From: Candidatus Liptonbacteria bacterium
GTDB taxonomy: Bacteria > Patescibacteriota > Minisyncoccia > UBA6257 > 2-01-FULL-56-20
Assembly: GCA_016186635.1 (NCBI GenBank)
Contig: JACPLI010000014.1
Coordinates: 804 to 64,803 of the forward strand
DNA: 64,000 nt
Reading direction: 5' to 3'
Every line of letters starts with the position of its first letter. Position 1 is the stretch's first letter. Shown here in pieces: positions 2,017 through 49,188 of this stretch. Made by a program: the position numbers and the translations under genes. The notes below the pieces were generated by a model. That model saw only the letters and a list, made by a program, of their open reading frames with translations, searched no databases and had not been told where the DNA came from.

Positions 2017-2106
2017 GGAGTAGTCGCTAATAATGCGAATAAGGGCAAATAACGCAAATAGATTCGCATTATTGAATCCAAATTAGCGTTATTCGCGATT
2101 ACTCCC
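2017..2106. repeat. palindromic interspersed element, AATAAYGCRAAT family, copy 1
   Basis: ggagtagtcgc-taataatgcgaat...attcgcattatt...attcgcgattactcc; same architecture at 26319, 33326, 45557, 52988. Confidence 0.7.
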
Positions 2107-2258: not shown

Positions 2259-3101
2259 ATGAGCGCGAGCGCAACAAGCGGAACAGGCACGGGCGGTGGA
2301 ACACCTCCAGCGGGCGGTGGAACACCTCCAGCGGGCGGTGGAACACCTCCAGCGGGCGGTGGAACACCTCCAGCGGGCGGTGGAACACCTCCAGTTCGGC
2401 GGCGTATCCTTATCGGACTCGCAATGGTAGTGGGTGCCGGACTCATCATCTTCGGCGCCTTCACGGCGGGTAAGAAATCAACGAGTGGTCCACCCTCAAA
2501 TCCTCCGGGGGTGGGCGGCGGGAGTACCAATGCGGTGCAACAAACCCAACCCAAGGGACAAAGCATGGCTAATCTCCCGCCTGGGTCGGGAGGGTCCACC
2601 GGCGGCACTGGCACCATCACTGCGGCTCCAGGGTCGGCCCTTGCCATCGGCAACCAACTCCATGTTCACATAGGGAAAGATGGGACGGTAACCACGGGGA
2701 CGAACACACCGTCAGGAGGACCACAAACTCCCGCGACAGGGCGATTCACTGCTGACGGACTCTTCGTGTTCTCATTGGAAGACGGCACAGGAGAAGTTGA
2801 GCCGTTTCCAAACGAACATGAATTCTGGGGGCTTCTCAACTACACCGGCACCAACACCACAAAGTGGGCGACAATTCCGGAGAGAGCACCGGATTTCGCC
2901 GTCACCCCGCAGAACATCGGGTTCTCCGTCCAATTCTCGCGGGGAGACGTGGAAGACCCCACGAACTGGACGCCGTGGTACAAGTTGTCGCCGACGGGGC
3001 CGGACGTTGATATCCCCGGAAAGCCGACGGCGTACCGCCTCCAACACACAAACAGTGTGGCGGCGGCGAGAATTCACCTTCTCTTCAAGAAAAGGTCCTA
3101 G
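2259..3101 (+). CDS. repeat-containing membrane-anchored/secreted protein
   Basis: N-terminus has 5 x GGGTPPA, one TM helix ILIGLAMVVGAGLIIFGAF, then Gly/Thr/Pro-rich ectodomain; no known domain. Confidence 0.6.
   Translation: MSASATSGTGTGGGTPPAGGGTPPAGGGTPPAGGGTPPAGGGTPPVRRRILIGLAMVVGAGLIIFGAFTAGKKSTSGPPSNPPGVGGGSTNAVQQTQPKGQSMANLPPGSGGSTGGTGTITAAPGSALAIGNQLHVHIGKDGTVTTGTNTPSGGPQTPATGRFTADGLFVFSLEDGTGEVEPFPNEHEFWGLLNYTGTNTTKWATIPERAPDFAVTPQNIGFSVQFSRGDVEDPTNWTPWYKLSPTGPDVDIPGKPTAYRLQHTNSVAAARIHLLFKKRS
2293..2398 (+). repeat. perfect tandem repeat 5 x 21 bp inside CDS
   Basis: unit ggcggtggaacacctccagcg repeated 5 times without mismatch, encoding (GGGTPPA)5. Confidence 0.85.
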
Positions 3102-4036: not shown

Positions 4037-6610
4037 CTAAATCACCACCACGCCAGCGACTCTATCGCCGGAGTTGAGGTTCATAATCCGCACGCCCTGC
4101 GCGGAGCGGCCCGTCTGGCGGACGCTTTTGAGCTCCGTGCGGATGACCTGCCCCTTTGCCGAGAGCGCGAGGAGTTCCGTCTCCTCGCCGAGGACGATGC
4201 CCGCAACCACCTTTCCCGTCTTCTCCGTCACCTTCGCCGTGCGAATCCCGGAGCCGCCGCGGTGCTGGGTTTTGTATTCCTTGAGCGGCGTCCGCTTGCC
4301 GAACCCCTTTTCCATCACCGCGAGGAGCTCCGCCGTGTCGCTCTTCTTCACCACGTCGAACCCCGCAACCGCGTCGCCGTGGCGAAGCCGGATGGCGCGC
4401 ACGCCCGCGGCGCCGCGCCCCATGGGCCTCGCCTGCGACTCCGCAAAGCGGATGGACTGGCCCTTCTCCGTCACGAGCACCACTTGGTCATCGCCCTTCG
4501 AGAGCCGGACCCACTTCAGCATGTCGCCTTTTTTTCCGCCGGAGGCGGATCCGGAGGTCCCTTTCCCGCCAGAGGCGGGTCCGCCTCGGGCGGAGGCGGA
4601 GAGCTTCATCCCGATAATCCCCGTGCGCCGGATATTTTCAAAGTCCTTCAAAGCGGTTTTCTTTATCATGCCGTTTTTGGTCACCATCACGAGATAGCGA
4701 TGAGCGATGAGTGATGAGTGATGAGTCTCCGATGCCTTGTTTCTTGCCCCTTGCTCGCCCCGTGGCGAAGCTGTACGGGGTTCCTTGTTACTCGATGGCA
4801 CATTGACGATCGCGCTTATGTTCTCGTCTGCGGGAATCTCAAGGAAATTGTGAATCGCTTTCCCCTTCGCGGTGCGGCTCGCGGCGGGAATCTCATACGC
4901 GCGCGTTTCGAATACTCTCCCGCGGCCGGTGAAGAAGAGTATCCGGTCGTGCGTGTTCGCGTGGAAGAAGTGCGAGAGGAAATCCTCCTCGGCGACATCA
5001 GACCCAATAAGCCCCTTGCCGCCACGCCGCTGGGCTTTGAAGGTGTCGGGCGGGAGGCGCTTCACATACCCCGACGCGGAGAAGGTAATAATTGCCTCTT
5101 CCTCGGGCACGAGGTCCTCGTCGGTCATCTCCTTCAAGGCATGCGCGACCACGTGCGTCCGGCGCGCCTCGCCATACTTCGCCTTGAGTTCCATGAGCTC
5201 CTTTTTCACCACCTCAAGCATCCGCGTGGGACTCTTCAAAATGAGCGTGAGTTCCTTGATGAGCGTGCGTTTTTCTTTAAGCTCGGCTTCGATTTTCTGC
5301 CGCTCCAATGCCGCGAGCGTCTGGAGCTTCATTTCCAAAATCGCGGCTGCCTGCGCCTCCGAGAGCGTGAAGTGCTTCATCAAGTTCGCCCTCGCGTCCT
5401 CGCGGTCCTTCGATTTCTTGATGGTGGCAATCACTTTGTCTATCGCATCAAGCGCCTTTGCGAGCCCCTCCAAAATATGCGCCCGCTCCTCCGCCCGCTT
5501 CAAGTCAAACTGCGTGCGGCGCTTCACCACCTCCCGCCGGTGCGCGACGTACGCGAGGAGCATCTCCTTCAAAGAGAAGAGTTCCGGCTGGATGCCGTCC
5601 CGCAAGGCAATCATGTTGAAATGGAAATCCTTCTGGAGGTCGGAGTGCTGGTAGAGCTGGTTTAAGATTTTCTGCGGCGCGGCATCGGACTTTAGTTCCA
5701 CCACGATGCGGAGCCCCTCGCGGTCGGACTCGTCGCGAAGGTCGCGGATGCCCTCGATTCTCTTCTCCTGCACAAGTTCCGCGATGTGCTTCACGAGCTC
5801 GGACTTGTTCACCTGGTAGGGAATCTCCGTAATCACGATGTCGAACCCCGCGCGCGTACTCTCTCCCTTCTTTCGCTCCACAATCTCCGCCTTCGCCCGG
5901 GTCGTGACCGCCCCCCGTCCCGTCGCGTATGCCGCCTTCACTGCCGCGCGGTCGTAAATCACGCCGCCCGTGGGAAAATCCGGCCCCTTCACATATTCGA
6001 GCAAATCCTCCGCCGCGGCGTTCGGCTTTTCGATAAGGAGCAGGGTTGCATCCACCACCTCCACCAAGTTGTGCGGCGGGATTGAGGTTGCCATCCCCAC
6101 CGCAATGCCCAAGGTGCCGTTCACGAGGAGGTTCGGAACCTTCGCAGGAAGCACCTTCGGCTCATCGCGGGTCGCATCGTAGTTCGGCTGCCAGTCCACC
6201 GTGTCTTTCTCGATATCAAACAGCATCTCCTCCGCGACTTTCGAGAGGCGCGCCTCCGTGTACCGCATCGCGGCGGGAGAATCCCCGTCCTGTGAACCAA
6301 AATTACCCTGGCCCCACACAAGGGGGTATCGCATGGAGAAGTCCTGCGCCATCCGCGCCAGCGTGTCGTAAATCGCCACGTCGCCGTGCGGGTGGTACTT
6401 CGCCATCGTCTCGCCCACCACGTTTGCCGACTTCCTGAATTTCGCGAGATGCGTGAGCCCTATGGACCACATGGTCCACAGCACCCTCCGGTGCACCGGC
6501 TTCAGCCCGTCGCGCACGTCCGGCAGGGCGCGCGCGACAATCACTGACATCGCGTAGTCGAGGTAGGATTCCTTTAACTCACTGGTGATTTCCCGTTTTT
6601 CGATATTCAT
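4037..6610 (-). CDS. gyrA: DNA gyrase subunit A
   Basis: 857 aa; N-terminal EITSELKESYLDYAMSVIVARALPDVRDGLKPVHRRVLW and catalytic-Tyr region AAMRYTEARL are GyrA hallmarks; C-terminal beta-pinwheel repeats. Confidence 0.95.
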   Translation of the reverse strand: MNIEKREITSELKESYLDYAMSVIVARALPDVRDGLKPVHRRVLWTMWSIGLTHLAKFRKSANVVGETMAKYHPHGDVAIYDTLARMAQDFSMRYPLVWGQGNFGSQDGDSPAAMRYTEARLSKVAEEMLFDIEKDTVDWQPNYDATRDEPKVLPAKVPNLLVNGTLGIAVGMATSIPPHNLVEVVDATLLLIEKPNAAAEDLLEYVKGPDFPTGGVIYDRAAVKAAYATGRGAVTTRAKAEIVERKKGESTRAGFDIVITEIPYQVNKSELVKHIAELVQEKRIEGIRDLRDESDREGLRIVVELKSDAAPQKILNQLYQHSDLQKDFHFNMIALRDGIQPELFSLKEMLLAYVAHRREVVKRRTQFDLKRAEERAHILEGLAKALDAIDKVIATIKKSKDREDARANLMKHFTLSEAQAAAILEMKLQTLAALERQKIEAELKEKRTLIKELTLILKSPTRMLEVVKKELMELKAKYGEARRTHVVAHALKEMTDEDLVPEEEAIITFSASGYVKRLPPDTFKAQRRGGKGLIGSDVAEEDFLSHFFHANTHDRILFFTGRGRVFETRAYEIPAASRTAKGKAIHNFLEIPADENISAIVNVPSSNKEPRTASPRGEQGARNKASETHHSSLIAHRYLVMVTKNGMIKKTALKDFENIRRTGIIGMKLSASARGGPASGGKGTSGSASGGKKGDMLKWVRLSKGDDQVVLVTEKGQSIRFAESQARPMGRGAAGVRAIRLRHGDAVAGFDVVKKSDTAELLAVMEKGFGKRTPLKEYKTQHRGGSGIRTAKVTEKTGKVVAGIVLGEETELLALSAKGQVIRTELKSVRQTGRSAQGVRIMNLNSGDRVAGVVVI
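4531..4600. repeat. GC-rich hairpin element inside gyrA (family CCGCCnnaGGCGGaTCC / TCCGCCTCGGGCGGA)
   Basis: ccgccggaggcggatcc ... cgccagaggcgggtccgcctcgggcggaggcgga; same motifs intergenic at 7629 and 33391; here translated as SASARGGPASGGKGTSGSASGGKKG. Confidence 0.55.
4697..4727. repeat. heptamer tandem array (GATGAGY)x4 in frame within gyrA
   Basis: gcgatgagcgatgagtgatgagtgatgagtc; minus-strand reading gives ETHHSSLIAHRY inside GyrA. Confidence 0.8.
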
Positions 6611-6644
6611 AGTGGATGAGTGATGAGTGATGAGTGATGAGTGA
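6611..6644. repeat. heptamer tandem array (TGATGAG)x4 abutting gyrA start codon
   Basis: agtggatgagtgatgagtgatgagtgatgagtga directly 5' of gyrA ATG (6610-6608, minus). Confidence 0.8.
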
Positions 6645-6684
6645 AATTTGCCCGCTCACCACTTGCCACTCCTCACTATTGTTA

Positions 6685-7593: not shown

Positions 7594-7628
7594 AGTATAG
7601 CCGAAATCCAGGATAATTTCCAATGATT

Positions 7629-7657
7629 CCGCCAAAGGCGGATCCGCCTCGGGCGGA
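7629..7657. repeat. hairpin element ccgccaaaggcggatccgcctcgggcgga
   Basis: two adjacent short hairpins; near-identical copy at 33391-33420, related copy inside gyrA 4531-4600. Confidence 0.6.
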
Positions 7658-7766
7658 CAATTATCAATTTTCAAAAAATGCGTCGTAGAGAACCGATTGA
7701 AAATTGAACATTGATACTTGAAAATTCAGAAACGCGGGCTTGCGTTTCTGGGAAATCCCCGTATAA

Positions 7767-8873: not shown

Positions 8874-8922
8874 CCCCTCGATATCCAATAGGTTTCCAAA
8901 AGGTTCCCGATTGATTTCTACA

Positions 8923-8963
8923 ATTTAGCAAACTACACGCTATAGCGTGTAGTTTGCTAAATT
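8923..8963. repeat. perfect palindrome aatttagcaaactacacgc-tat-gcgtgtagtttgctaaatt
   Basis: 19-bp arms, 50 nt after rpsA stop; related copy at 11531-11572. Confidence 0.65.
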
Positions 8964-9080
8964 GCACAGTCATACAGTTGGTCATCCCAAGAACACCCGG
9001 GGCGGCTTTGGATTCACTCACGTATTGTCGTGTATTGAAGGATTGAAAGAAAACATGTAAGCTGGGTACTGCTAACGCAT

Positions 9081-11485: not shown

Positions 11486-11530
11486 CCGCCCACAATACTT
11501 CCATACAAATCGCAGAAAATCCAGCGCCGC

Positions 11531-11572
11531 AATTTAGCAGATTACATGCGGTCGCGTGTAATTCGCTAAATT
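11531..11572. repeat. imperfect palindrome aatttagcagattacatgcg-gtc-gcgtgtaattcgctaaatt
   Basis: same outer arms AATTTAGCA...TGCTAAATT as 8923-8963. Confidence 0.55.
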
Positions 11573-11727
11573 GACTTCAGATGCCGAAATAATATACTTT
11601 CAACAATTCCCATGCTTCTCACCCGCCGCATCTCAACCTGGTCCAGTTTTGTGAGAATCCCCCTCTCTTTCTGACCCTGCCTTCCGGCAGGCAGGCGAGA
11701 GGCGTTGCACCGTATGCGTGTACGGTA

Positions 11728-13693: not shown

Positions 13694-13717
13694 AGCTCGG
13701 TGAATAATTCGATTTCT

Positions 13718-13741
13718 GTCATTCCCGCGGAAGCGGGAATC
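13718..13741. repeat. hairpin gtcattcccgcggaagcgggaatc
   Basis: family also at 38551, 49086, 49903. Confidence 0.6.
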
Positions 13742-13769
13742 TATATCGTTATCGTTGAAGGGTTCTAGA

Positions 13770-14642
13770 TTATCGGGTCAAGCCCGATAATGACAATTGG
13801 GGGGTGTTATTCACCAAGCTCTTCTCATTCAACTTGTAGAAATTTTCGAAAAGCTTCGCGACAAGGATAGGTCCCGTGCCGCCAGGGGTGGGGGTGTAGG
13901 AAATAGTAGCGAGCGATGAGTGGCGAGTGGCGAGACTGCTGGAATCGAAGTCACCGAGAAGCTTGCCGCCCACGGAGTCGTACCCAAAATCAACCACAAG
14001 CGCGCCTTCTTTAAGCGTCTCTGCATTGAAAAGCCCTGCCTTGCCAGCGCCGGAGATTACCACATCACAGTTCTTGAGGATGGCAAAGTCCGCGCCGCGG
14101 CCCAACACATACAATTCACTCACCTTCCGCATGAGCCAGACCGCAATCGGCTTCCCGATGAGCATCCCCGCACCGATGACCGCCACTCGCTTACCCTTGA
14201 GGTCAACCTTCGCGCGCCGCAGGACCTCCTCCACGGTCGCGACCGCAGGGTGCAATACCTTCGCGCGGTTGTTGTAGTGGGCGCCCAGCGTCCGCTCGCT
14301 CAAGCAATCGGGGTCCTTCTCCGGCGGAATCGCATTCACGATGTAGGTGGCGTTCAGCGGCTCGGGGAGCGGCAGCTGCACAATCACGCCGCCGCAGGTT
14401 TTCCCCGCCGCGAGTTTTCCCACTTTCTCGCGGAGCGCATCATTCCCTAGGGCAGGAGCAAGTTTATAAATACGATAATCAATTCCCAGCCCTTTCGCGG
14501 TGTCCTGCTTTAGTTTTTGAAAACTTTCGGATGCGGGGTCATCGCCAATTAAAACTCCGGCGAAGAATTTCTTCGGCTTTGGCTTTTCTTTGAGGCGCCC
14601 GAGAAGCTCGGCGGCGATTTTTTTCCCGTCAATCATTGGCAT
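13770..14642 (-). CDS. folD: bifunctional methylenetetrahydrofolate dehydrogenase/cyclohydrolase
   Basis: MPMIDGKKIAAEL..., GVIVQLPLP, ...TPTPGGTGPIL FolD motifs; start placed at ATG 14642 (track start is a TTG within a heptamer array); C-terminal tail reads through hairpin repeats. Confidence 0.88.
   Translation of the reverse strand: MPMIDGKKIAAELLGRLKEKPKPKKFFAGVLIGDDPASESFQKLKQDTAKGLGIDYRIYKLAPALGNDALREKVGKLAAGKTCGGVIVQLPLPEPLNATYIVNAIPPEKDPDCLSERTLGAHYNNRAKVLHPAVATVEEVLRRAKVDLKGKRVAVIGAGMLIGKPIAVWLMRKVSELYVLGRGADFAILKNCDVVISGAGKAGLFNAETLKEGALVVDFGYDSVGGKLLGDFDSSSLATRHSSLATISYTPTPGGTGPILVAKLFENFYKLNEKSLVNNTPQLSLSGLTR
13917..13948. repeat. heptamer array (GAGTGGC/GATGAGT) in frame within folD
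   Basis: gtagcgagcgatgagtggcgagtggcgagactg encodes insert SSSLATRHSSLATIS just before the conserved TPxPGGxGP motif. Confidence 0.75.
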
Positions 14643-20071: not shown

Positions 20072-21553
20072 ATGAAGATATCGCGCGGGAGTTGCCCAAC
20101 GACGCTCGTGCTCCTCGCAGCCACTGCGGGGGTAGTGGCAACTATCGCAACGTTTACAAATCCGGCCGCCGCAGCCACGCCCGACACACAGGTGAAGTAT
20201 GACCGGAAAATGCCGCTCCCGCCCGCGGAATTCGTGCCGCTTAGCACAGTGGAAATAAAAAGCATAACCGCGCCGCAGCTGTGCCATGACGCAACTTTCC
20301 AGAATCAATTTAGAGTTGACCCGGCGTTCCAAAAGAAGCACCTTGCCGATTGGAAAAAGCAGGCGCAGTGCGCACAAGGAATCGCGAAAGCGACTGCGCT
20401 TGGGCAAGAAATCTCGGGCATAGACACTGCGGCGTATAACTCTGTTCGAGCGCTTAAAGAATCGCTTGAGCAGACAAAACAAGCTCTTGCAAAAAGAACA
20501 ACAATTGACGGGCTTCTTCTTGTCGCAATTCCAATCGGCGGATTCGTACCGAACGGGTATCAAAGCGCAAAGAGTATCGAGGTGAAATGCGTAAGTGGTG
20601 TAGAAAAGGCCGTCGGTAGGGGCATCTTCACGGAAGGATTTGAGTTTAAACCCGTAACGCCGGAGCAGACTGCGAAAATAGCTGAACTGAAAAAAAATGC
20701 GGCAGAGATTCAAGCGAGATATAACGGACTTGCGACCGACTACGCAAAGAACGGCGGCAAGGGCAGTTTTTTGGAAGCAACCTGGGCGCGCGCGGCGGCT
20801 ATAGCGGCTGATTTCGGTAATTTGCTTAATTCTGCCAAAGCAGATTTTGTGTTGCTCACGCCAGAGGCAGTTGACCTCCGGCATTCGGACTTAAAGCTGG
20901 AGCAAAAGTTTTCTATTTCTTTCAGGATGACTCCTGGCAAGCAGGTAGAGGTACCGTCGCTCCCGAAAATCATACGAGACCACGGAGGCGTGCCTTCCGG
21001 CGCGGTATTCGAAACGGGAACCGTTAAGGTCGGCGACAAAACCTTTTTAGGGCTGCCAATACCGGCGACGCACACTTTGGACGGGTTTCGCAAAGGAGTT
21101 GATATGCTTCTCAAGAGTTTCACCACTGGCGAGTTCTTTGTGTTTGATGAAAAGACTAACGAGTTCGTACCGGATAAAAAAAAGGAAGGGGACATATTCG
21201 CTATCAGTGAAGCCGCATTGAAACTAAGACGCGATGCATTGCAAGCGAAACTAGATGCGCTCAAAACCGAGAATTATAACTGTACAACCTCCGCCACACC
21301 CCCCCCACCCACCAATCTCCAGTCTTCGCTCACTCCAAGCGTCCAGGGATTGAGAGAGTATGTTGAAGAACTTAAAAGAGAGCGCGACGGGCTAAAAGTG
21401 CAGATTGAGGGAATCAGGCGGCAACGGAATTATTCGCCCTCGCCATTGCTGGAGCAACAGTCAAATACCACCCCTTTGCGTCGGCAGCTCGGGGACATTG
21501 CGGAAGCGCTCGGAAATATTCTCAAGGCGCTCCAAGAAGCGAGTATGTTATAG
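20072..21553 (+). CDS. hypothetical secreted protein (paralog A) with conserved C-terminal module
   Basis: signal peptide MKISRGSCPTTLVLLAATAGVVA; C-terminus LKVQIEGIRRQRNYSPSPLLEQQSN shared with 21561-23030. Confidence 0.55.
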   Translation: MKISRGSCPTTLVLLAATAGVVATIATFTNPAAAATPDTQVKYDRKMPLPPAEFVPLSTVEIKSITAPQLCHDATFQNQFRVDPAFQKKHLADWKKQAQCAQGIAKATALGQEISGIDTAAYNSVRALKESLEQTKQALAKRTTIDGLLLVAIPIGGFVPNGYQSAKSIEVKCVSGVEKAVGRGIFTEGFEFKPVTPEQTAKIAELKKNAAEIQARYNGLATDYAKNGGKGSFLEATWARAAAIAADFGNLLNSAKADFVLLTPEAVDLRHSDLKLEQKFSISFRMTPGKQVEVPSLPKIIRDHGGVPSGAVFETGTVKVGDKTFLGLPIPATHTLDGFRKGVDMLLKSFTTGEFFVFDEKTNEFVPDKKKEGDIFAISEAALKLRRDALQAKLDALKTENYNCTTSATPPPPTNLQSSLTPSVQGLREYVEELKRERDGLKVQIEGIRRQRNYSPSPLLEQQSNTTPLRRQLGDIAEALGNILKALQEASML

Positions 21554-23030: not shown

Positions 23031-23145
23031 AACTCGTTGTACGTTTTCGGTTTCGCCGCCCGTATCGCTTCACGTTGACGTCTTACATATGCCCACACCG
23101 ATACGGGCTACGACACCGTCACCGCTCAACACCAAGTAAAATAAG

Positions 23146-23210
23146 TGGGCCAGGAAGGACTCGAACCTTCGATCCTCTTGGTATAAGCAAGATGCTTTAG
23201 CCGCTAAGTC
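23146..23210 (-). pseudogene. tRNA-like fragment (anticodon arm with loop CTTATAC, T-arm, acceptor 3' strand) lacking matching 5' half
   Basis: minus strand ...GCA-TCTTG-CTTATAC-CAAGA-GGATC-GAAGG-TTCGAGT-CCTTC-CTGGCCC-A; complementary GGGCCAG occurs only ~520 nt upstream (approx 23663-23669). Confidence 0.4.
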
Positions 23211-23256
23211 CCGACGCTCCGGTCGGGACCCCGACCCTGCAAGGCGTCGGGGCTAC
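23197..23256. repeat. double-hairpin element R copy 1 (CCCCGAC..GTCGGGG / TCCCGACC-GGAGC-GTCGGGA / CTTAGCGGCtAAAGCA)
   Basis: near-identical unit at 23591-23660; related hairpin at 28706-28740. Confidence 0.6.
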
Positions 23257-23258
23257 TG

Positions 23259-23329
23259 TGGGCGCACTAGGAATCGGACCTAGGTCGGGCGTGTATAAGA
23301 CGCCTGCTTTGCCATTAAGCTATGCGCCC
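23259..23329 (-). tRNA. tRNA-Ile with rare anticodon TAT (UAU)
   Basis: GGGCGCA-TA-GCTT-AATGGCA-AAGC-A-GGCGT-CTTATAC-ACGCC-CGAC-CTAGG-TCCGATT-CCTAG-TGCGCCC-A; unusual T-loop TCCGATT. Confidence 0.75.
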
Positions 23330-26318: not shown

Positions 26319-26472
26319 GGAGTAATCGCTAATAATGCGAATTATAATTTAATAACGCGAATTATTCAAACGTGGGAGGAGTATTCGCGAATAATGCAAA
26401 TATGGATTAAATAATGCGAATGGAATCTATTTGCATTATTTGCCGGAGATTCGCGATATTCGCGATTACTCC
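26319..26472. repeat. palindromic AATAAYGCRAAT-family element, copy 2 (longest, ~155 bp)
   Basis: ggagtaatcgctaataatgcgaat...attcgcgaataatgcaaat...aataatgcgaat...attcgcgatattcgcgattactcc between hppA 3' end and clpP 5' end. Confidence 0.7.
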
Positions 26473-26665
26473 TAGAGGAACGGCACCAGAAGTAAAGCAA
26501 TAATGTTGATTATCTTGATTACCGGATTGATTGCGGGTCCCGCCGTGTCCTTGTAGGGGTCGCCCACGTCGCTCGCTTCACTCACTCCCTCACAACCTCT
26601 CGGTTTTGAGTGATTTCCTACACGGTGAAACTCCCGTTTCCCCGACCCCCTTCCCGTGGGCGACC

Positions 26666-28690
26666 CTAGAGAAAAGGAACAAGCAACAGCGCAATTATAT
26701 TAATAATCTTTATCACAGGATTTATGGCTGGTCCAGCAGTATCTTTATACGGGTCGCCCACCGTGTCGCCCGTAACCGCCGCTTTATGCGCCACAGACCC
26801 CTTCCCGCCGAGATTCCCCTCTTCAATATATTTTTTCGCGTTATCCCACGCAGCGCCGCCGGAAGTCATTGCGAGCGCCACGAAAAGCCCCGTCACGATA
26901 GAACCCAAGAGAAGTCCTCCAAGCGCCGCCGCGCCGAGCGCCCATGCGACGAGTATGGGGATCACGACCGGCAAGAGCGCCGGCACCACCATTTCCCGAA
27001 TCGCCGCGCGCGTCACGATATCCACGCACTTCGCATAGTCCGGCAACGCTTTTCCCTCCATAATTCCAGGAATCTCCCTAAACTGCCGGCGCACTTCAAC
27101 CACTACGCTCCCCGCCGCCTTCCCCACCGCGCGCATCGAGATTGAAGCGAAGAGATAGGGGATGAGCCCGCCGATGAAGAGTCCTGCGATTACCTTCGGG
27201 TCGGTGAGGTCAAACGACTGCCCCGCATACTTCGCGCCGAGGTCGTGCACATACGAGGCGAAGAGCACCACCGCCGCAAGCCCTGCCGAGCCGATGGCAT
27301 ACCCCTTTGTTACCGCCTTTGTCGTGTTTCCCACGGAGTCAAGCGCATCCGTCACTTCGCGCACCGAGTCGGGAAGCCCCGCCATCTCCGCAATGCCGCC
27401 CGCATTGTCCGTAATCGGACCGAAGGCGTCAATCGCGACCACAATTCCTGTCATCGAGAGCATGCTCATCACCGCGAGCGCCACGCCGTAGAGTCCGGAG
27501 ACGGCATACGCACCAAGGATGCCCCCCACAATCACCAGCACGGGGAGTGCCGTCGCCTCCATTCCCACCGCGAGACCGGCGATGACGTTCGTGCCGTGGC
27601 CGGTTTCGGATGCCTGTGCAATCGCACGCACCGGACGGAACTTTTTCGACGTGTAGTACTCCGTAATAAGCACGATGAGCGCGGTCACTGCAATCCCGAG
27701 TACCATGGGGAGAAAAAGCTCCCATTGGCTCAGCGCGCCGCCTGCTCCCCCGGAGGACTGAAAGAGTCCCGCAACGCGGCCGCTCACGAACCAAAACCCG
27801 ATAAGCGCAAGCGCGCTTGCACCCGCAAGTCCCTTATACAGCGCCCCCATAATATACGCGCTCTTCGCGGAGCTCCCCGCAGGAAGGTGGACAAAGAAAA
27901 GCCCCAGCACCGACGCAATCGCGGCGACCCCCCCCATGAGAAGAGGGAGCGTTACCGCAACAGCGGTGCCGGGGAACGTAAGCGCCCCAAGAATCATTGC
28001 GGCAATCGCCGTCACTGCATACGTCTCAAAAAGGTCTGCCGCCATACCCGCGCAGTCTCCCACGTTGTCGCCGACATTGTCGGCAATCACCGCCGGGTTC
28101 CGCGGGTCGTCTTCAGGAATCCCCGCTTCCACTTTGCCTACAAGGTCCGCGCCCACATCGGCCCCCTTCGTAAAAATGCCGCCGCCCAAACGGGCGAAGA
28201 CAGATATCAAGCTTCCCCCGAAACCGAGTCCGATCAAGGCGCTCACGTTGTTCGTCGCCGCATAGAATCCCGCAACCGAGAGCAGCGCAAGCCCTACCAC
28301 GAGCAAACCCGTCACCGCGCCTCCTTCAAACGCCACCGCAAGCGCATCTTTAAATCCCCGCTTCGCCGCCTCCGCGGTTTTCACGTTCGCGCGGACGGAC
28401 ACGTGCATACCAACATACCCTGCCGCTCCCGACGCAACCGCCCCCACAATAAAACCGGCCATCGTTGTTGCATCCACGAGTACCCCAATGAGCGCCGCAA
28501 TGACGACTGCCACTCCCGCAATGGTCTTGTACTGCCGGTTCAAAAACGCCTTCGCGCCCGTGCGTATCGCACCCGCAATTTCTTCCATACGCGCATCGCC
28601 CCCGGGACGCTTCGCAATCCGCCCGCCAAGCCACGCGGCAACAAGAATGGAGAGCGCGCCCGCACCTACCGCAAATGATACTGGATTCAT
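26666..28690 (-). CDS. hppA: membrane-bound H+-translocating pyrophosphatase
   Basis: 674 aa, ~16 TM; [20 protein letters not shown] and [11 protein letters not shown] motifs. Confidence 0.95.
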
Positions 28691-28705: not shown

Positions 28706-28800
28706 CCCGACGCTTCGGTCGGGGCTCCGACTCCCGCCGCAACGGGACGCCGGAGCTAATAACTTATGACTTATGACAAATGACCTTTCTCACTCTCACT
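28706..28800. repeat. hairpin ccccgacgcttcggtcgggg plus heptamer arrays (CTTATGA, CTCACTC, CTCTTAC)
   Basis: between hppA start and nusA stop; nusA C-terminal tail [14 protein letters not shown] is encoded by the arrays. Confidence 0.5.
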
Positions 28801-30012
28801 CTTACTCTTACTTTCATCCCCATGCTCATTTGTATTCTCGCTTTCGGTTTCGACAACGCCCGCCACTCCTCCTTCCTGAGATTCCTCGGGGCGCGTCTGC
28901 GAGCGCACGTCGAGTTTCCACCCGGTGAGCTTCGCCGCGAGCCGCACGTTCTGCCCGCCCTTGCCGATTGCCAAACTCAACTGGTCCTCGGGCACATAGA
29001 CGCGCGCCTCGCGCCGCGGCAAAACCTCAACCTTCTCCGCCTTCGCCGGAGAGAGCGCATTCCCCACAAACGTTCCCGAATCCTCCGACCACTCAATGAT
29101 GTCCACCTTCTCGGGACCAAGCTCGTTCGTCACCGCCATCACCCGCGTGCCGCGCTGACCCACAAGCGCCCCTACCGGGTCCACTCCCTCTGCCTTCGAC
29201 GCAACTGCAACCTTCGTGCGGTTCCCCGCCTCACGCGCAATCGCCTTTACCTCAACCACCCCTTCCGCGAGTTCGGGCACCTCGAGTTCAAAAAGCTTCG
29301 CAACAAATTTCGGGTGTGAGCGGGAGAGCACAATGCCGGGCAAGCGCGTGTCTTCCTGCACCGCGAGCACGAGGAACCGGAGCCGCTCCCCGGAGCGGTA
29401 GTGCTCTCCCGGAATGGACTCATTTGCGAACATCACTCCCACCGTCCGCCCCAAGTCCACATACACGTGCCCGCGCTCGAACCGCTGGACGATGCCGCTC
29501 ACAATCTGCCCTTCCTTATCCCGCCACTCGGAGAGGATGGAGTCACGCTCCGACTCCCGGAGTTTCTGCAAAATGATTTGCTTCGCGGTCTGCGCCGCGA
29601 TGCGGCTGAAGTCCTCGTGCGTCTCAAGCGGGAACAGCATTTCGTCGCCGAGTTTCGCGTTCGGCTTCACTTTTTTTGCTTCGTCTAAAAATACGTGGCG
29701 CTCGGGATTATAGCGCGGCAACACGGTTATCCCCTCTTCGCCCTGCGGCGCAGCCTCCGGCGGCGCCTCTTCCGTCCCCTCTTCCACAATGCGCACGGTG
29801 GATTCATCCACCACGGTTTTCACATGCCAAAAACGCAGCTCTCCTGATTTTGAATCGAGCTTCGCGCGCACCACATCACCCCGCGCCCCATACTCTTTTT
29901 TGTATGCGGCAGCAATGGAAGATTCGATTGCCTCAAGCACACGCTCGGGCTGAAGCCCTTTCTCCTCCGCAACTTGCTTGAGCGCGCGGGATATATCTTT
30001 GATATTCAGCAT
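28771..30012 (-). CDS. nusA: transcription termination/antitermination factor NusA
   Basis: N-terminal domain, S1 and KH domains (e.g. [32 protein letters not shown]). Confidence 0.9.
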
Positions 30013-31807: not shown

Positions 31808-33331
31808 ATGCGCGACCACCTCGCCCGCGTGCACTCCGCAGAACTTGAGGGAATTAACGCGCGCCCCATCGAAGTTGAAGTTGACCTCAACGTCGGCCTC
31901 CATGCGTTCAACATTGTGGGACTCGCCGACAAGGCGCTGAACGAAGCGCGGGAGCGCGTGAACTCCTCGCTCAAAAATTCCGGCGTAAAGCCGCCGAACA
32001 GGGAAAACCGGAAGATTACGGTGAACCTCGCTCCCGCTGACGTAAAAAAAACGGGTTCGCAGTACGACCTTGCAATCGCGATAGGGTACCTCCTCGCCAC
32101 GCACCAGATAAAAGATTTTGACGCGAGCGACAAGCTTTTTATGGGAGAACTCGCGCTTGACGGCAGGCTCCGTCCGGTGCACGGAGCGCTCTGCATCAGC
32201 CACATGGCAGCGCAGTCCGGTTTCCGCTACCTCTTCCTCCCCGCGTCGAACGCCAACGAGGCCTCGGTAGTGCCCGACACGCACGTGGTTCCGGTTGAAA
32301 CACTGAATGATGCGATTGCATTCCTTGAGGGAAACCGCTCGCTCGCGCGTCACGCGTACCGCCCCGCCGAGCCGCCCACCGCGAATGTCCCCGACTTCGC
32401 CGACGTCAAAGGGCAGGAGAACGCGAAACGCGCGCTCATCATTGCGGCGGCGGGAGGGCACAATCTCCTCATGAGCGGGCCTCCCGGAGTAGGAAAGAGT
32501 CTCCTCGCGCACGCAATGGTGGGAATACTCCCCGCAATGGAGCCGGAGGAGTCCATTGAAGTTACAAAAATCTGGAGCGCCGCGGGGTTCCCTATGGCGG
32601 GGCTCCTTGCCGCACGGCCGTTCCGCGCGCCGCACCAAACCGCCACGCTTCCTGCAATCGTGGGAGGCGGCAGCGACCCCAAACCAGGCGAAATCAGCCT
32701 TTCGCACCGCGGCGTCCTTTTTCTCGATGAGTTTCCTGAATTTCAGCGTCACATTCTCGAAGCGCTCCGCGCGCCTCTCGAATCAGGCACCGTGCACGTC
32801 GCGCGCGCAAAGGGCGCGCTCACGTTCCCCGCGCGGTTTACGCTTATCGCCGCCATGAACCCCTGCCCGTGCGGATATCACGGCGACCCGGAAAAGGACT
32901 GCAAGTGTGCGCCGTACGAAGTGGTCCGTTACCAGAAGAAAATTTCCGGGCCGCTCACCGACCGCATTGACTTGCACGTCACCGTGCCGCGCGTGCCGAT
33001 TGAGCATCTCCGCGCGCCGCATGCCGCGGCGCTCACGAGCGCGGATGCGCGCGCCGTAATCGAGGCCGCGCGCGCCCGCCAGCGCGAACGGCTCAGCACA
33101 CTCCACATCACCACCAACGCCGACATGAGCTCCAAACACACCGAGTTGCTCGTGCGCATGGACCGGGGAGGGGAGGAGTTTGTGAGCACTCTCACACACA
33201 AAAAAATTTCTCCCCGCGCCTATTACCGCATTTTAAAAACCGCCCGCACGATTGCTGACATAGAAAATGCAGAATGCGTGTCTTCGGGGCACCTCGCGGA
33301 AGCGTGGAGTTACAGGGTGCGCGAGGAGTAA
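31808..33331 (+). CDS. comM: YifB/ComM-family Mg-chelatase-like AAA+ ATPase
   Basis: 507 aa; N-terminal Lon-like domain, Walker A GPPGVGKSL, sensor regions, C-terminal ChlI-like domain. Confidence 0.9.
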   Translation: MRDHLARVHSAELEGINARPIEVEVDLNVGLHAFNIVGLADKALNEARERVNSSLKNSGVKPPNRENRKITVNLAPADVKKTGSQYDLAIAIGYLLATHQIKDFDASDKLFMGELALDGRLRPVHGALCISHMAAQSGFRYLFLPASNANEASVVPDTHVVPVETLNDAIAFLEGNRSLARHAYRPAEPPTANVPDFADVKGQENAKRALIIAAAGGHNLLMSGPPGVGKSLLAHAMVGILPAMEPEESIEVTKIWSAAGFPMAGLLAARPFRAPHQTATLPAIVGGGSDPKPGEISLSHRGVLFLDEFPEFQRHILEALRAPLESGTVHVARAKGALTFPARFTLIAAMNPCPCGYHGDPEKDCKCAPYEVVRYQKKISGPLTDRIDLHVTVPRVPIEHLRAPHAAALTSADARAVIEAARARQRERLSTLHITTNADMSSKHTELLVRMDRGGEEFVSTLTHKKISPRAYYRILKTARTIADIENAECVSSGHLAEAWSYRVREE

Positions 33332-33453
33332 AAGTATCGCGAATATCGCAAATCGGCGGCAAATAATGCGAATGGATTCGCGTTATTTCCGCCAAAGGCG
33401 GATCCACCTCCGGCGGAGAATCAACCGTAATTCGCATTATTCGCGAATACTCC
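33326..33453. repeat. composite palindromic element (AATAAYGCRAAT family copy 3 fused with CCGCCAAAGGCGGATCC hairpin)
   Basis: ...tatcgcgaatatcgcaaat...aataatgcgaat...ccgccaaaggcggatccacctccggcgga...attcgcattattcgcgaatactcc between convergent comM and M23 peptidase. Confidence 0.7.
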
Positions 33454-34481
33454 TATTTGGCGAACGGGTTCACCGCTCCCAATACTTCAAAGTGCGCGTG
33501 GCACCCCGCCGCATCTCCCGTATCGCCCATCCTGCCGATTTCCTGCCCTTGTTTTACATACTCGCCCACATCCACCGACGCGGATTTAAGGTGCGCGTAG
33601 CGTGTCCGGACGTTGGCGCCCGCGGGGTGCTCGATCAGTACAAATGTCCCGTAGCCGCCGTTCCATCCGCCGCTCCCCTCGCCGTATTGCGCATCGGGCA
33701 CCGCAAGCCCCTCCGCCGCCGCGACGACTGGCGTGCCGCACACGCCCGCGATGTCCACTGCGTTCACCGGGTGGAGATTCCCGAGATTAAATCCGGACGC
33801 CGGCATCATAAAGTATCCCTTGAGCGCGGGAAGCGGCTTTCCATTTTCCCTCACGCGCGCGGCGAGCACGCCGGGGATAATGGGCCGGGCTCCCGGACCG
33901 AGCATCGCCACATTCACAGAGCGGTTTGCGTCCGCGATGTCCTTCGCCGCGACGCCGAACGCGTCCGCAACCGATTCAAGCGTTTCCCCTTCTTTGGTAA
34001 AGTAAACCGTCCCTGATACCGGGGGAATCTGAAGCGCCATCCCCACCGCAAGCCGGTTTGCCTTGACGTCCGGATTCGCCCGAAGCACGGTTTCGAGCGA
34101 TACCCCGAACTTTGCCGCAATCCCCGAAAACGTGTCGCCGCGTGCCACCTTATAGGTGGCAAATTCGGTGCGCGGCGAGAAACCCGGGGCGCTCCCGAAG
34201 GCACTAAGCGCGGCGAGGCGCACTCCCTGTGCCGCAGCGCGCTCGCCCGCCCGGTGCGCCGGAGACATGCCAAGCCGCGGGCGGCTCGCCATCGCCACGC
34301 TCACCGATTGAGCGCCCCGCGCGTGTAGCGCCGGCCCCCCCCACACCCCTTTCGCAAGAACCCGTGGGAGCTCTCCCGAAGAGTCAAGAATTCCCGCAGT
34401 GGCAAGTGCAACAAGCAACAAAACCGCGGCCACAAAAGGCGTGCGCTCCTCATGAAGCGATAGAATCATACTAATATTCAT
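33453..34481 (-). CDS. LysM-domain M23-family peptidase
   Basis: signal/TM, LysM YKVARGDTFSGIAAKFGVSLETVLRANP, M23 motifs GGYGTFVLIEHPAGANVRTRYAHL and HAHFEV. Confidence 0.8.
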   Translation of the reverse strand: MNISMILSLHEERTPFVAAVLLLVALATAGILDSSGELPRVLAKGVWGGPALHARGAQSVSVAMASRPRLGMSPAHRAGERAAAQGVRLAALSAFGSAPGFSPRTEFATYKVARGDTFSGIAAKFGVSLETVLRANPDVKANRLAVGMALQIPPVSGTVYFTKEGETLESVADAFGVAAKDIADANRSVNVAMLGPGARPIIPGVLAARVRENGKPLPALKGYFMMPASGFNLGNLHPVNAVDIAGVCGTPVVAAAEGLAVPDAQYGEGSGGWNGGYGTFVLIEHPAGANVRTRYAHLKSASVDVGEYVKQGQEIGRMGDTGDAAGCHAHFEVLGAVNPFAK

Positions 34482-36444: not shown

Positions 36445-37638
36445 TTACTTGCTCGCGCCAGTCATAAAGATAGGAGCTCCTTCTTTCCAAACGCCCTCGC
36501 ACTCATCCGAGTAGTCAAGACAAGGAACCACACCAGGAGTATAGAGCCCCAGCCACCACACGCTCGCGCGCAGGGTCTTGAACGCAAAAAAGAGAGGAGA
36601 GGAGAGAAATGTCTTCGGCACAAAGAGCGCGCCGTTCGGCGGCGCCACCGGCCCGCTCACGGGCACCCAGTACGCGTTTTCACATTCGCAGGTCAAGGGC
36701 TGCCCCAACGTAACCCCAAACGGAGGGTTTGCGGCGAAGGCGGGGAGAGCGCCGAAGAGCCCGAGCACGCGCTCAAAGAAACCCCCGTGCTCCCGAAGCG
36801 CGGTGAGCTGGAACTGCCGTGAAAATTCTTTGTTCTCATGCTGCGCAGTCGCCATAAATTTCTCGAAGAAAGTTTTGAGCTCGGCGCTCTCCGCTGCGCC
36901 CCGCTCCGCCGCAAGCGCCTTCTCAATGAGCGCAAGCGTGAGCCGGTCAAACCCGAGCATTCTCTTCTGCACCGCCACCGCTTCTCCGTACACTTTTATT
37001 CCGCGCATGAACGCGAGCTTCGCAGTGATGAAATCCTTCCACGCAAGGAGCGAATCGCGGATTGCGGCAAATAAGCCGTCCCCGAGCGCCCGCGCCACAA
37101 GGTCCGCGGGGAGGAGCTCCACGCCGTCATCGTTCCGGAGTGCCGCCCGGAACCGCTTTGCATCAAAGCGCACCTCGCGCGAGTGCGAGACAAAATACTG
37201 CACATATGCCTCGGGTGTGCGTACGCCGGAAGCATCAATCGTAGTCTCCGCATCCGCAACTGCCGGCAGGGGGAGCATTTCCGCTTGCGGAGAGGGGAGG
37301 GGGAGCATCGCCGCGACTTCTTCCTTGACCTGCTTGAGCGTGGGAATTGAAACTGAATAGGGAGTTCCCTCCGAGCGAGCGCGGGGAGCGGCCCCCCCGT
37401 TATTCTCACGAGGCGCTGCGTGCCCCGTATCGCCTTGCTGCGGGGCAAGCCACCCTCCGCGGGAGCCCACAAACGCATTTCCCGGCGCCGCGGCGGCTCG
37501 CGGCGCTTCGCGCGGCGGCTCCACCACTTCGGCGCGGCGTGATGAGAAAAAACGGGGCACGAACACCACTATTGTCACTGCGATAACTGCTGCGGCACAG
37601 ATTATCATTACCCGCCACAGCTTCGGATTACCTGCCAT
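36445..37638 (-). CDS. hypothetical membrane-anchored protein
   Basis: 397 aa; N-terminal TM VMIICAAAVIAVTIVVFV; Ala/Pro-rich linker; no known domain. Confidence 0.45.
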   Translation of the reverse strand: MAGNPKLWRVMIICAAAVIAVTIVVFVPRFFSSRRAEVVEPPREAPRAAAAPGNAFVGSRGGWLAPQQGDTGHAAPRENNGGAAPRARSEGTPYSVSIPTLKQVKEEVAAMLPLPSPQAEMLPLPAVADAETTIDASGVRTPEAYVQYFVSHSREVRFDAKRFRAALRNDDGVELLPADLVARALGDGLFAAIRDSLLAWKDFITAKLAFMRGIKVYGEAVAVQKRMLGFDRLTLALIEKALAAERGAAESAELKTFFEKFMATAQHENKEFSRQFQLTALREHGGFFERVLGLFGALPAFAANPPFGVTLGQPLTCECENAYWVPVSGPVAPPNGALFVPKTFLSSPLFFAFKTLRASVWWLGLYTPGVVPCLDYSDECEGVWKEGAPIFMTGASK

Positions 37639-37662
37639 CCCTCTATTATATATAATGCACGC

Positions 37663-38502
37663 ATGCCAGGAGCAAGATTAGGCCAGCACTTCCTCCGTGA
37701 CCAAGGCGCCCTCCGCGCGGTTGCGGCGGCGCTCGAGCTCGCGCCGGGCGACACCATTATCGAAATCGGCGCGGGGCATGGGGAGCTCACGGAAGAGTTG
37801 ATGAGTGAAAAGTGGAAAGTGAAGAGTGGAGAAAAAATACAAGTTCTTGCCATAGAAAAAGATTCGCGGCTTGCAAGAACGCTTCGAGAAAAATACTCGC
37901 GAAGCAGGAACATTGAAATAGTCGAGGGCGATGTGCGAACCGTATTGCCCTCCTTACTCACCACTTCTCACTCATCACTCGCCACTCGCCACTCGCCACT
38001 CGTTTACAAGCTCTGCGGCAACATCCCCTACTACCTCACTGGGTTTCTCTTCCGCATCGTGAGCGAACTTGAGCCGCTCCCCGCGCGGGCGGTGTTCACC
38101 ATTCAGAAAGAAGTTGCGGAGCGAATTGATGCAAAACCGCCGCACATGAATCAGCTTGCGGCGAGCGTGCAGTTCTGGGCGGAGCCGAAAATAATCCGCG
38201 TGGTTCCTCGGAGCGCGTTCTCACCGGCGCCAAAAGTGGACTCGGCGATTCTATTACTCAACCCTGTCATAAAAAAGGGAGAAAGAGGAGAAAAGGGGGA
38301 AAGGGGGAAATACTATGCGGCGGTCCATGCGCTCTTCTCCCAACCCCGCAAGACCATTCTGAACAACGTGGCGGCGGCGCTCCACGTGCCGAAAGAAGAA
38401 GCCGCACACACGCTTCATGAAGCGGGGATAGCTCCTCTCGCCCGCGCGCAGAACCTTTCTGTTGCAGATATCAAAAAGATATCCTCGCTTTTCCCGCTTT
38501 GA
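37663..38502 (+). CDS. rsmA: 16S rRNA (adenine1518/1519-N6)-dimethyltransferase
   Basis: GQHFLRD, SAM motif IIEIGAGHGELT, GNIPYY; contains three low-complexity in-frame inserts (37797-37835, 37952-38002, 38275-38315). Confidence 0.85.
   Translation: MPGARLGQHFLRDQGALRAVAAALELAPGDTIIEIGAGHGELTEELMSEKWKVKSGEKIQVLAIEKDSRLARTLREKYSRSRNIEIVEGDVRTVLPSLLTTSHSSLATRHSPLVYKLCGNIPYYLTGFLFRIVSELEPLPARAVFTIQKEVAERIDAKPPHMNQLAASVQFWAEPKIIRVVPRSAFSPAPKVDSAILLLNPVIKKGERGEKGERGKYYAAVHALFSQPRKTILNNVAAALHVPKEEAAHTLHEAGIAPLARAQNLSVADIKKISSLFPL
37952..38002. repeat. heptamer array (CTCAYCA/CTCGCCA)x7 in frame within rsmA
   Basis: ccttactcaccacttctcactcatcactcgccactcgccactcgccactcg encodes SLLTTSHSSLATRHSPL between conserved EGDV and KLCGNIPYY. 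Confidence 0.8.
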
Positions 38503-45556: not shown

Positions 45557-45602
45557 TAATTCGCGTTATTTGCCCCAATTCGCATTATTCGCGATTACTC
45601 CT
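45557..45602. repeat. palindromic AATAAYGCRAAT-family element, copy 4
   Basis: taattcgcgttatttgccccaattcgcattattcgcgattactcc ending 1 nt before ATG 45603. Confidence 0.65.
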
Positions 45603-46109: not shown

Positions 46110-46112
46110 AGG

Positions 46113-46168
46113 ACAAGTGGTGAGTGATGAGTGGTGAGTGGGGAGTGGTTAAGTGGCGAGTGATGAGG
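46113..46168. repeat. heptamer array (GTGGTGA/GTGATGA/GTGGGGA...)x8
   Basis: ggacaagtggtgagtgatgagtggtgagtggggagtggttaagtggcgagtgatgagg. Confidence 0.8.
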
Positions 46169-49079: not shown

Positions 49080-49085
49080 AGCCCT

Positions 49086-49153: not shown

Positions 49154-49188
49154 AACAGAAAGAATACATTCGACCCCTGCACACTACC

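Follow-up and report, generated by a model that had tools for sequence, protein, structure and literature searches.

Five short repetitive elements in a 64,000-nt stretch of Candidatus Liptonbacteria DNA (contig JACPLI010000014.1, hereafter the window) are probably derived from a small nuclease cassette that is widespread among the Patescibacteria, as arm pairs without the gene or as single arms. They would be non-autonomous elements resembling miniature inverted-repeat transposable elements (MITEs) or REPINs (repetitive extragenic palindromic, or REP, doublets forming hairpins). In its full form the cassette consists of a 44-nt arm, a gene for a GxxExxY protein of ~130 aa with a PD-(D/E)xK, Cas4-like fold, and a second 44-nt arm in inverted orientation. 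All nine arms identified in the window fit the arm family of these cassettes, with a length of 44 nt and three units ending in C[G/T/A]AAT, and they belong to the family that flanks GxxExxY genes in other genomes. The cassette together with its dispersed repeats appears to be undescribed, as nothing equivalent was found in the searchable literature.

A nuclease gene between inverted arms

Alignment of all ends defined the repeat unit as a 44-nt arm, (TA)GGAGTAATCGC-GAATAATGCGAAT-N7-8-AAATAAYGCGAAT, of which the final block is also given as AATAAYGCGAAT. The exact 24-nt terminus of this arm occurs at 79 loci in 36 other Patescibacteria genomes with GC contents of 0.37–0.61 (37 genomes with the window), including metagenome-assembled genomes of Liptonbacteria, Harrisonbacteria, Wolfebacteria, Colwellbacteria, Paceibacteria and others, while viral contigs gave 0 matches to it. 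The elements are therefore neither private to the window nor, as most copies are gene-less, always found beside a transposase. Their layouts recur as ~90-nt "++--" pairs, many solo arms (about half of the sites) and some three-arm composites, with the units spaced 19–21 bp apart. Pairs are mostly heterotypic, with a type A and a type B arm in 20 of 43. A arms point toward the next start codon, and incoming stops fall at B/S arms (odds ratio 3.7, p = 0.016), a polarity that matches derivation from an oriented cassette.

In seven of these loci (L078, L032, L046, L049, L056, L058 and L016) the arms adjoin an open reading frame (ORF) of ~130 aa, in most cases with an arm on each side, and canonical arms also lie beside GxxExxY genes in 13 metagenome loci that were selected by protein (L084–L095 and L100). 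The cassette ORF matches TIGR04256 (1.4e-31) and PF13366 PDDEXK_3 (2.7e-30), with E55, D73 and E83-x-K85 as the invariant residues of a PD-(D/E)xK nuclease with a Cas4-like fold. The original prediction had noted that no transposase accompanies the elements, which is true of this window, although the same arms flank a nuclease gene in other genomes.

The association also holds when approached from the protein side. Eighty metagenome loci were chosen by protein similarity alone (428 relatives confirmed), 79 of them testable, and the 110 nt upstream of each gene were compared with the 110 nt downstream, with direct orientation as the control. A significant inverted repeat flanks the GxxExxY gene in 59 of the 79 loci, whereas the direct-orientation control stayed at background, and no other enzyme was found between inverted arms in these 59 cassettes. 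Inverted flanking arms are the rule for the GxxExxY family in Patescibacteria. Canonical AATAAYGCRAAT arms are confined to proteins at least 57% identical to the query, and more distant lineages share the same arm design with other units that end in C[G/T/A]AAT (TACGAAT, TACAAAT, TCTCTAAT and TCACGAAT); non-canonical units were also seen in L066 and L074. Protein identity and arm similarity are correlated (Spearman 0.33, a value reached by 0 of 999 Mantel permutations), and the arms co-diverge with the GxxExxY protein lineage. Two arm families can also stand side by side: in L094, a locus from an 893-kb contig, a gene-less palindrome of TCTCTAA units lies directly upstream of clpP (1700–1790) and a canonical GCGAAT-arm GxxExxY cassette directly downstream of it (2391–2948), the cassette gene having its own TAAACT-N6-ATG start behind a terminator-like hairpin.

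The GxxExxY family is large (5,316 clusters at E <= 1e-10) and is listed as being of unknown function. No solved structure matched the protein by sequence, no defence-system model matched it, and PHROGs gave only a marginal match to a family of unknown function. Our literature search returned nothing on the function of GxxExxY, TIGR04256 or PDDEXK_3, and nothing on Patescibacteria MITEs or REPINs or on Parcubacteria leaderless promoters.

Anatomy of the five window sites

Within the window, AATAAYGCRAAT has 19 matches at no more than one mismatch against 0.98 +/- 1.02 expected, a number reached in 0 of 100 shuffles, and 18 of the 19 fall in the five sites, all of which are present where the original prediction had placed a family of AT-rich palindromic elements. 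A whole-window nhmmer search with an arm profile trained only on arms from other genomes recovered nine arms at exactly these five sites (E 8.5e-14 to 3.8e-08) and none elsewhere. The elements are indeed AT-rich, with a GC content of 0.36–0.48 against 0.57 for the window. The arms and the repeat nested within one of them are listed below with their nhmmer E values.

2017–2060, plus strand: copy 1 left arm, type B, spacer AAGGGCA, GGAGTAGTCGC-TAATAATGCGAAT-N7-AAATAACGCAAAT (E 3.9e-11)
2062–2105, minus strand: copy 1 right arm, type A, spacer TTGGATTC (E 6.5e-13)
26319–26362, plus strand: solo arm at copy 2, type A-like (E 5.7e-13)
26378–26421, plus strand: copy 2b left arm, type A (E 8.7e-12)
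26428–26472, minus strand: copy 2b right arm, type B, family D10 (E 5.6e-12)
33325–33373, plus strand: copy 3 left arm, type B (E 2.8e-08, profile positions 7–44)
33376–33453, minus strand: copy 3 right arm, matched by nhmmer in two parts, 33425–33453 (profile 1–30) and 33376–33389 (profile 31–44)
33390–33424, unstranded: nested repeat of family D14, a CCGCCAAAGGCGG / CCGCC-N-GGCGG double hairpin inside the copy 3 right arm
45558–45601, minus strand: copy 4, solo arm, type B (E 8.5e-14)
52989–53034, plus strand: copy 5, solo arm, type A (E 3e-13)

Copies 1–3 hold full arm pairs and copies 4 and 5 are single arms, so that the description of five palindromes stands for the first three alone. The two arms of copy 1 together form a 90-nt imperfect palindrome (DNA fold −17.4 kcal/mol, z −4.2), and site 26319–26472 comprises the solo arm 26319–26362 and a complete pair, 26378–26472, that folds at −22.3 kcal/mol (z −5.5). 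Against z values of −4.2 to −5.5 for the pairs, copies 4 and 5 gave −2.3 and −0.2, and since they do not fold convincingly better than shuffles we do not regard them as palindromes or hairpins. Copy 3 carries a 6-nt insertion at its left terminus (GGAGTA-AAAGTA-TCGCG), and its right arm, which had been described as fused to the CCGCCAAAGGCGG hairpin, is instead interrupted by a 35-nt repeat inserted within the arm, hence the division of its profile match into two parts. This double-hairpin repeat, TTCCGCCAAAGGCGGATCCGCCTCGGGCGGA (D14), occurs in the window at 4564–4598, 7627–7661 and 33387–33421, the last nested in copy 3, and its core is also present in loci L002, L022, L025, L028, L029, L032, L044, L058, L071, L084, L100, L137 and L160.

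The outer ends of the arms meet neighbouring reading frames with little or no intervening sequence. An ATG is abutted twice, not once as first reported: the solo arm at 26319–26362 ends 1 nt away from the start codon of clpP (ATG 26317, minus strand), and copy 4, whose inner end lies 13 nt past the stop of gene 44123–45544, ends 1 nt ahead of the ATG of a PrgI-family gene (45603), with GCGATTACTCC-T-ATG upstream of both starts. Elsewhere the outer ends supply or directly follow stop codons. The Mg-chelatase/ComM-like gene 31808–33331 stops at the TAA within GGAGTAA of the copy 3 left arm, the TAG of the M23 peptidase gene 33453–34481 (minus strand) includes the outer G of the copy 3 right arm, and copy 5 begins right behind the TAG (52986–52988) of gene 51714–52988. 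The TAG of a remnant H+-pyrophosphatase (H+-PPase) 3' end (26471–26567) is completed by the outer G of the copy 2b right arm. Copy 1 is the exception to this contact with ORF boundaries, as it lies between a canonical terminator (1974–2006, ending 10 nt ahead of its left arm) and a strong promoter (2132–2160), as originally described.

The H+-PPase 3' end is duplicated (26471–26567 versus 26665–26761, 74% identity), with the TAG of the remnant overlapping the element end and ~97 nt between the two copies bounded by inverted decamers, GGTCGCCCAC and GTGGGCGACC. The duplication points to a past insertion or replacement at this end of the gene. Separately, the solo arms 45558–45601 and 52989–53034 bracket a 7.4-kb type-IV-secretion-like cluster (PrgI / IVS-protein / TraC-VirB4-like / T4SS-pilin), with both outer ends directed toward the cluster; were the cluster circularised, the two arms would give one A+B element linking its last stop to its first ATG.

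The gene content of the window, with PrgI/TraC-type secretion genes, H+-PPase, ClpP, YidC and many proteins without a family match, is like that of Patescibacteria (the Candidate Phyla Radiation). Four other contigs (GCA_016192265.1 and three Logan assemblies) are 99.9–100% identical to the window and carry the copy 4 arm unchanged; among these near-identical contigs of the same strain no empty site was seen, and the exact ClpP protein is without record. Most window genes have no Shine-Dalgarno sequence and several have TATAAT-N6-ATG starts, and leaderless starts therefore seem common. The start codons of the divergent genes 36445–37638 (minus) and 37663–38502 (plus) are separated by just 24 nt (37639–37662), where the two genes share a palindromic TATATATAAT. 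Each ATG lies 6 nt past a TATAAT, an arrangement resembling a minimal promoter that serves two leaderless mRNAs in both directions. TAnnnT-N6-ATG starts are also present at 28771–30012, 53650–54387 and 20072–21553.

Stop-to-start junctions and competing explanations

Contact with reading frames is a general property of the arm family. An ORF of at least 60 aa begins 0–1 nt outward of 50 of 160 ends (31%) and within 0–3 nt of 55 of 160 (34%), the latter compared with about 5% in a random control. At ~42 further ends the arm overlaps the stop codon of an ORF that runs into it, for the most part in the frame TAG-GAG-TAA, and in 36 of 54 protein-selected cassettes the next gene starts −6 to +8 nt from the repeat end. 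The abutting ATGs are true starts, including those of L14 (Pfam alignment 1–122 of 122), L22, L6, L24, L17, SecY, Adk, SSB, MreB and FtsE. Since these are housekeeping genes, the elements lie inside essential operons; in other genomes arms stand within ribosomal-protein operons directly before L6, L14, L22, L24, SecY and Adk. At such positions a terminator function is excluded, and no regulon is defined by the elements. The suggestion of bidirectional terminators is not upheld, and the elements do not fit an intrinsic terminator, defined by a G+C-rich stem, a T/U run after it and a place at transcription-unit ends: the arms have no T-run, copy 1 sits behind a terminator of its own, nothing terminator-like scored at copies 2 and 4, and copy 3 yielded only marginal hairpins of 5–6 bp. 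A regulon operator was likewise rejected because the neighbouring genes (ribosomal proteins, SecY, Adk, SSB, MreB, GyrA, tRNA synthetases, pilus genes) are functionally unrelated. Integron attC sites, which have GTTRRRY cores, occur in ORF-attC arrays and go with a nearby tyrosine integrase, do not fit either: the ends read GGAGTAATCGC, cassette arrays are absent, and the annotated window genes, the only ones checked, include no integrase. Ends that lie 0–1 nt from an ATG may reflect filtering by selection where genes are densely packed, targeting, or a signal for initiation.

Comparison of orthologous junctions, which had been proposed as a check, revealed sites that are empty, filled by a canonical arm, or filled by another arm family.

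Into L14: canonical arm in L033; different arm family in L005; empty in L142
From S8 into L6: canonical arm in L005; different arm family in L142; empty in L070 and L144
Into SSB: canonical arm in L051, L053 and L006; different arm family in L077; empty in L121
Into clpP: canonical arm in the window and in L031 (opposite orientation); different arm family in L094 (TCTCTAA-type palindrome); no empty example

Gene-less forms occur in multiple copies, and their presence at a given stop-to-start junction varies between genomes. One genome (JAUSKB) holds five copies of a 150-nt three-arm composite at five loci, with conserved internal junctions, each located between a stop and, 0–1 nt on, the ATG of a different gene, and L016 holds a nested or duplicated cassette. 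The junction upstream of FtsE carries a cassette in L056, L058 and L016 and a solo arm in L003. At the same junction in L028, a Harrisonbacteria locus, a GIY-YIG-like gene (2176–2452) with its own 12-nt inverted repeat, CCCCGCCCTCTA...TAGAGGGCGGGG, is present and there is no GxxExxY cassette. Small-nuclease cassettes of different kinds may have a hot spot at this junction.

A mechanism of mobility that would account for these features is conjectural, and we infer it from sequence and arrangement. In this view three units containing GCGAAT, at spacings of 9 bp and ~20 bp, make up the array in each arm, and the cognate nuclease would bind them as double-stranded DNA before cutting at or near the outer boundary of the arm. 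Host repair or recombination might then copy the unit into new junctions without duplicating the target, and gene-less pairs could be multiplied or kept by an enzyme acting in trans, in the way that RAYTs (REP-associated tyrosine transposases) sustain REPINs. The ends would be adapted to be harmless, in that TAG-GAG-TAA stops the incoming ORF and the next ATG follows 0–1 nt past the other end. The earlier idea of binding arrays for a DNA-binding protein points in the right direction, with units 19–21 bp apart, and the binding itself is presumed.

Several observations weigh against this interpretation. The 64-kb window contains no GxxExxY gene, and PD-(D/E)xK nucleases on their own are not known to transpose DNA. 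No consistent direct repeat was found at the flanks of gene-bearing or gene-less copies that could represent a target-site duplication. The co-divergence of arms and protein would also arise from mere physical linkage. Arm identity over the first 24 nt is no higher within genomes (0.89) than between them (0.88), which argues against recent bursts and equally fits a binding site for a host protein, and conservation looks inflated because the 79 loci were picked by a strict terminus pattern. In addition, L062 has a Cas2-like/PaaX_M ORF (1353–1789; PF20803, PF09827) between two arms in direct, not inverted, orientation, and together with the bracketed secretion cluster it indicates that arms can flank genes other than GxxExxY. 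Finally, outside the Patescibacteria only two of six plasmid-borne GxxExxY genes have inverted arms, those of Bernardetia (clear) and Treponema (short), and those in Fusobacteria and Prevotella have direct repeats.

The alternative that survives best, though we consider it unlikely, is that the elements are host regulatory modules, namely promoter/operator arrays bound by a conserved host protein, with GxxExxY as one controlled gene among others. The 12-mer AATAAT+GCGAAT would then represent a −10 hexamer followed by a 6-nt discriminator for leaderless transcripts, which suits a host that largely lacks Shine-Dalgarno sequences and has several TATAAT-N6-ATG starts. In the inward direction AATAAY-GCRAAT stands directly before an ATG at N = 6 in 7 cases and at N = 4 in 18, against 0 and 1 in the control, and this modest excess leaves an inward leaderless promoter (AATAAT-GCGAAT-ATG) as a secondary possibility. 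The solo arm at clpP contains a sigma-70-like site matching at 10 of 12 positions and directed at the gene (TTGAAT-17-TATAAT), and an arm precedes the clpP orthologues of both the window and L031. The spacing of the units by two helical turns, a level of conservation typical of constraint, and the 31% of ends that abut true start codons also agree with regulation. However, in full pairs all −10-like units face inward, toward each other, and by inspection no −10-like hexamer lies outward at the N6 leaderless distance from an abutting ATG; an outward leaderless promoter was rejected on these grounds, there being nothing promoter-like at the PrgI arm and, at clpP, a promoter-like site only in the variable spacer. 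A regulatory role is further opposed by the lack of functional relation among neighbouring genes, by single orthologous junctions that may be empty, filled, or occupied by a different arm family, and by the many ends, such as those of copy 3, that point at convergent genes or at the 3' end of a gene. Nor would a general promoter be expected to bracket a single protein family in inverted orientation as systematically as is seen here.

Action at the RNA level, in which a long transcript stem is processed by RNase III, stabilises mRNA or terminates transcription, seems to us quite improbable. RNase III processes 23S rRNA intervening sequences, and the window itself contains a 23S_rRNA_IVP-family gene between inverted heptamer arrays in the same layout; full copies fold better than shuffles, as given above, and weak terminator-like hairpins were scored inside copy 3. 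Yet transversions make up 222 of 325 mismatches between paired arms, G.U-compatible changes are even between the strands (52 versus 51), and the spacers of A and B arms are non-complementary. The RNA hairpin/RNase III model was rejected on the dominance of transversions and the absence of strand asymmetry. Solo arms, at about half of the sites, are unable to form a stem, and the features that speak against a terminator, including the position inside ribosomal-protein operons, apply here as well. Rfam 15 at the gathering threshold matched only tRNAs in the window, and a permissive scan of copy 2 gave a single chance match (E 0.95). The transversions, the G.U symmetry, the non-complementary spacers, the frequent solo arms and the lack of an Rfam match favour recognition of the repeated units as double-stranded DNA over a selected RNA stem.

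We give very little credence to ordinary MITEs of a DDE transposon such as IS630/Tc1-mariner, a type that duplicates TA, with the transposase elsewhere in the genome and GxxExxY as passenger cargo: terminal inverted repeats, small size, many copies, TA as the second commonest dinucleotide outside the ends (33 of 170) and several pairs flanked TA...TA, such as window copy 2, would fit. But AT is as common (35 of 170) because it is part of the CAT where a start codon abuts, and copies with a gene lack a consistent duplication (flanking dinucleotides TT/AT, AG/AT, AA/TA and GT/AT), so that a TA target-site duplication was rejected. Neither the ~20 canonical copies with a gene nor the 59 cassettes selected by protein have a DDE transposase between their arms, any cargo held by paired inverted arms is GxxExxY every time, and arm sequence follows the GxxExxY lineage.

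Returning to gene-less derivatives of a GxxExxY cassette as the preferred interpretation, a broader proposal is that they exemplify a general and separate class of nuclease cassettes, very small and either mobile or persistent, with REPIN-like gene-less progeny in the stop-to-start junctions of Patescibacteria, which we offer tentatively and at somewhat less than even confidence. If it were true, GxxExxY proteins would be the enzymes of that class, with cognate multi-repeat arms and no target duplication, the ends would have evolved to close the ORF before them and to permit, or promote, a start at the ATG that they abut, and the small-gene cassettes of 23S-IVS proteins and GIY-YIG nucleases would be parallel members of the same lifestyle. 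The cassette interpretation, if correct, would give a concrete role and a DNA ligand to the large family PF13366/TIGR04256, for which no function is on record in the searchable literature. It would also add a second repeat-plus-enzyme system beside REPIN-RAYT, mechanistically different and in a radiation whose mobile DNA is poorly charted. Elements that sit 0–1 nt before L14, SecY and SSB without harm bear on how transcription and translation start in genomes poor in Shine-Dalgarno sequences and rich in leaderless starts, and the conserved 24-nt terminus is a useful marker of Patescibacteria contigs and a known cause of assembly breaks.

Neighbouring repeats and known systems

The window contains further repeats. 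A second cassette family of the same layout at 46111–46659 carries a PF05635 gene (46178–46582) between the PrgI gene and the TraC/VirB4-like gene, with arms made of inverted heptamer arrays of GTGATGA and TCATCAC type, the right one reaching the next ATG (~46655). Gene-less heptamer arrays lie at 4691–4728, 6600–6651, 13900–13937, 37948–38015, 44757–44874, 45108–45195 and 54399–54447. An intergenic hairpin repeat, GTCATTCCCGCG-N4-CGGGAATC, occurs at 13713–13753, 49082–49113, 49121–49161 and 49898–49929, and its CATTCCCGCG motif is present in about a dozen other loci; it resembles the Neisseria repeats ATTCCC-N8-GGGAAT. A near-perfect palindrome of 45 nt, CAATTTAGCAAACTACACGCTATAGCGTGTAGTTTGCTAAATTG, occurs twice (8921–8965 and 11529–11573, ~2.6 kb apart), and its two copies bracket a region with tRNA-Pro, tRNA-Arg and tRNA-Val. 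Adjacent tRNA-Ile genes at 23145–23217 and 23258–23329 both have the anticodon TAT, one scoring only 38 bits in Rfam, and 5–6 perfect tandem copies of the 21-nt CGGGCGGTGGAACACCTCCAG (2290–2415) lie within ORF 2259–3101, the next gene past copy 1.

Among known systems, five invite comparison with the GxxExxY cassette and its arms. Free-standing homing endonucleases, such as the GIY-YIG Seg and HNH Mob enzymes of T4-like phages, are likewise small nuclease genes between conserved genes, with no target duplication and with presence/absence polymorphism at orthologous junctions, and the L028 GIY-YIG-like gene with its own inverted repeat replaces the GxxExxY cassette at a syntenic junction. Homing endonuclease genes differ in having neither long inverted arms nor multi-copy gene-less derivatives at unrelated sites. 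Within the Cas4/RecB-family PD-(D/E)xK nucleases, GxxExxY stands apart by its length of ~130 aa, about two thirds of Cas4, and by the lack of a CRISPR context. The 23S rRNA intervening-sequence (IVS) cassette, which encodes a PF05635 four-helix-bundle protein, also places a small ORF between inverted repeats precisely between or within essential transcription units, but its protein family and repeat unit are different, and selection for RNA-level pairing was not seen in GxxExxY arms.

MITEs such as the Correia element of Neisseria share the layout of these elements: ~90–155 bp long, gene-less and dispersed near gene starts, with terminal inverted repeats, possible outward promoter activity and frequent TA at their boundaries. 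Here, in contrast, there is no consistent target-site duplication and no related DDE transposase, and the longer form with the same ends encodes only a predicted nuclease of 130 aa, not a known transposase.

A similar logic underlies the REPIN-RAYT systems of Proteobacteria, in which the RAYT, an IS200-like HUH/Y1 transposase, is flanked by repeats. Both systems have short intergenic palindromic repeats in the form of inverted doublets and singlets, a cognate enzyme gene that itself lies between inverted repeats, and a repeat sequence that varies with the enzyme lineage. Inheritance in both is apparently long-term and vertical, with the cassettes described here being syntenic across genera and arm identity within genomes equalling that between them. 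The original comparison with REP elements and bacterial interspersed mosaic elements (BIMEs) therefore captures the dispersed, intergenic and palindromic character of the repeats, but not the linked gene, which encodes a PD-(D/E)xK Cas4-like GxxExxY nuclease and not a RAYT; the elements do not belong to the REP/BIME group. REP sequences are hairpins of 20–40 nt with a GTAG/CGTC tag, whereas the arms here are 44 nt long with three direct sub-repeats and are not themselves palindromic, reading GGAGTAATCGC, with the would-be GTAG position carrying 1.0 bit and a consensus of A. The elements described here fill stop-to-start junctions exactly, also inside operons, and their hosts are Patescibacteria. 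Together, these comparisons place the cassette and its arms within a REPIN-RAYT- or MITE-like logic that differs from both in enzyme class, arm design and behaviour at gene junctions.

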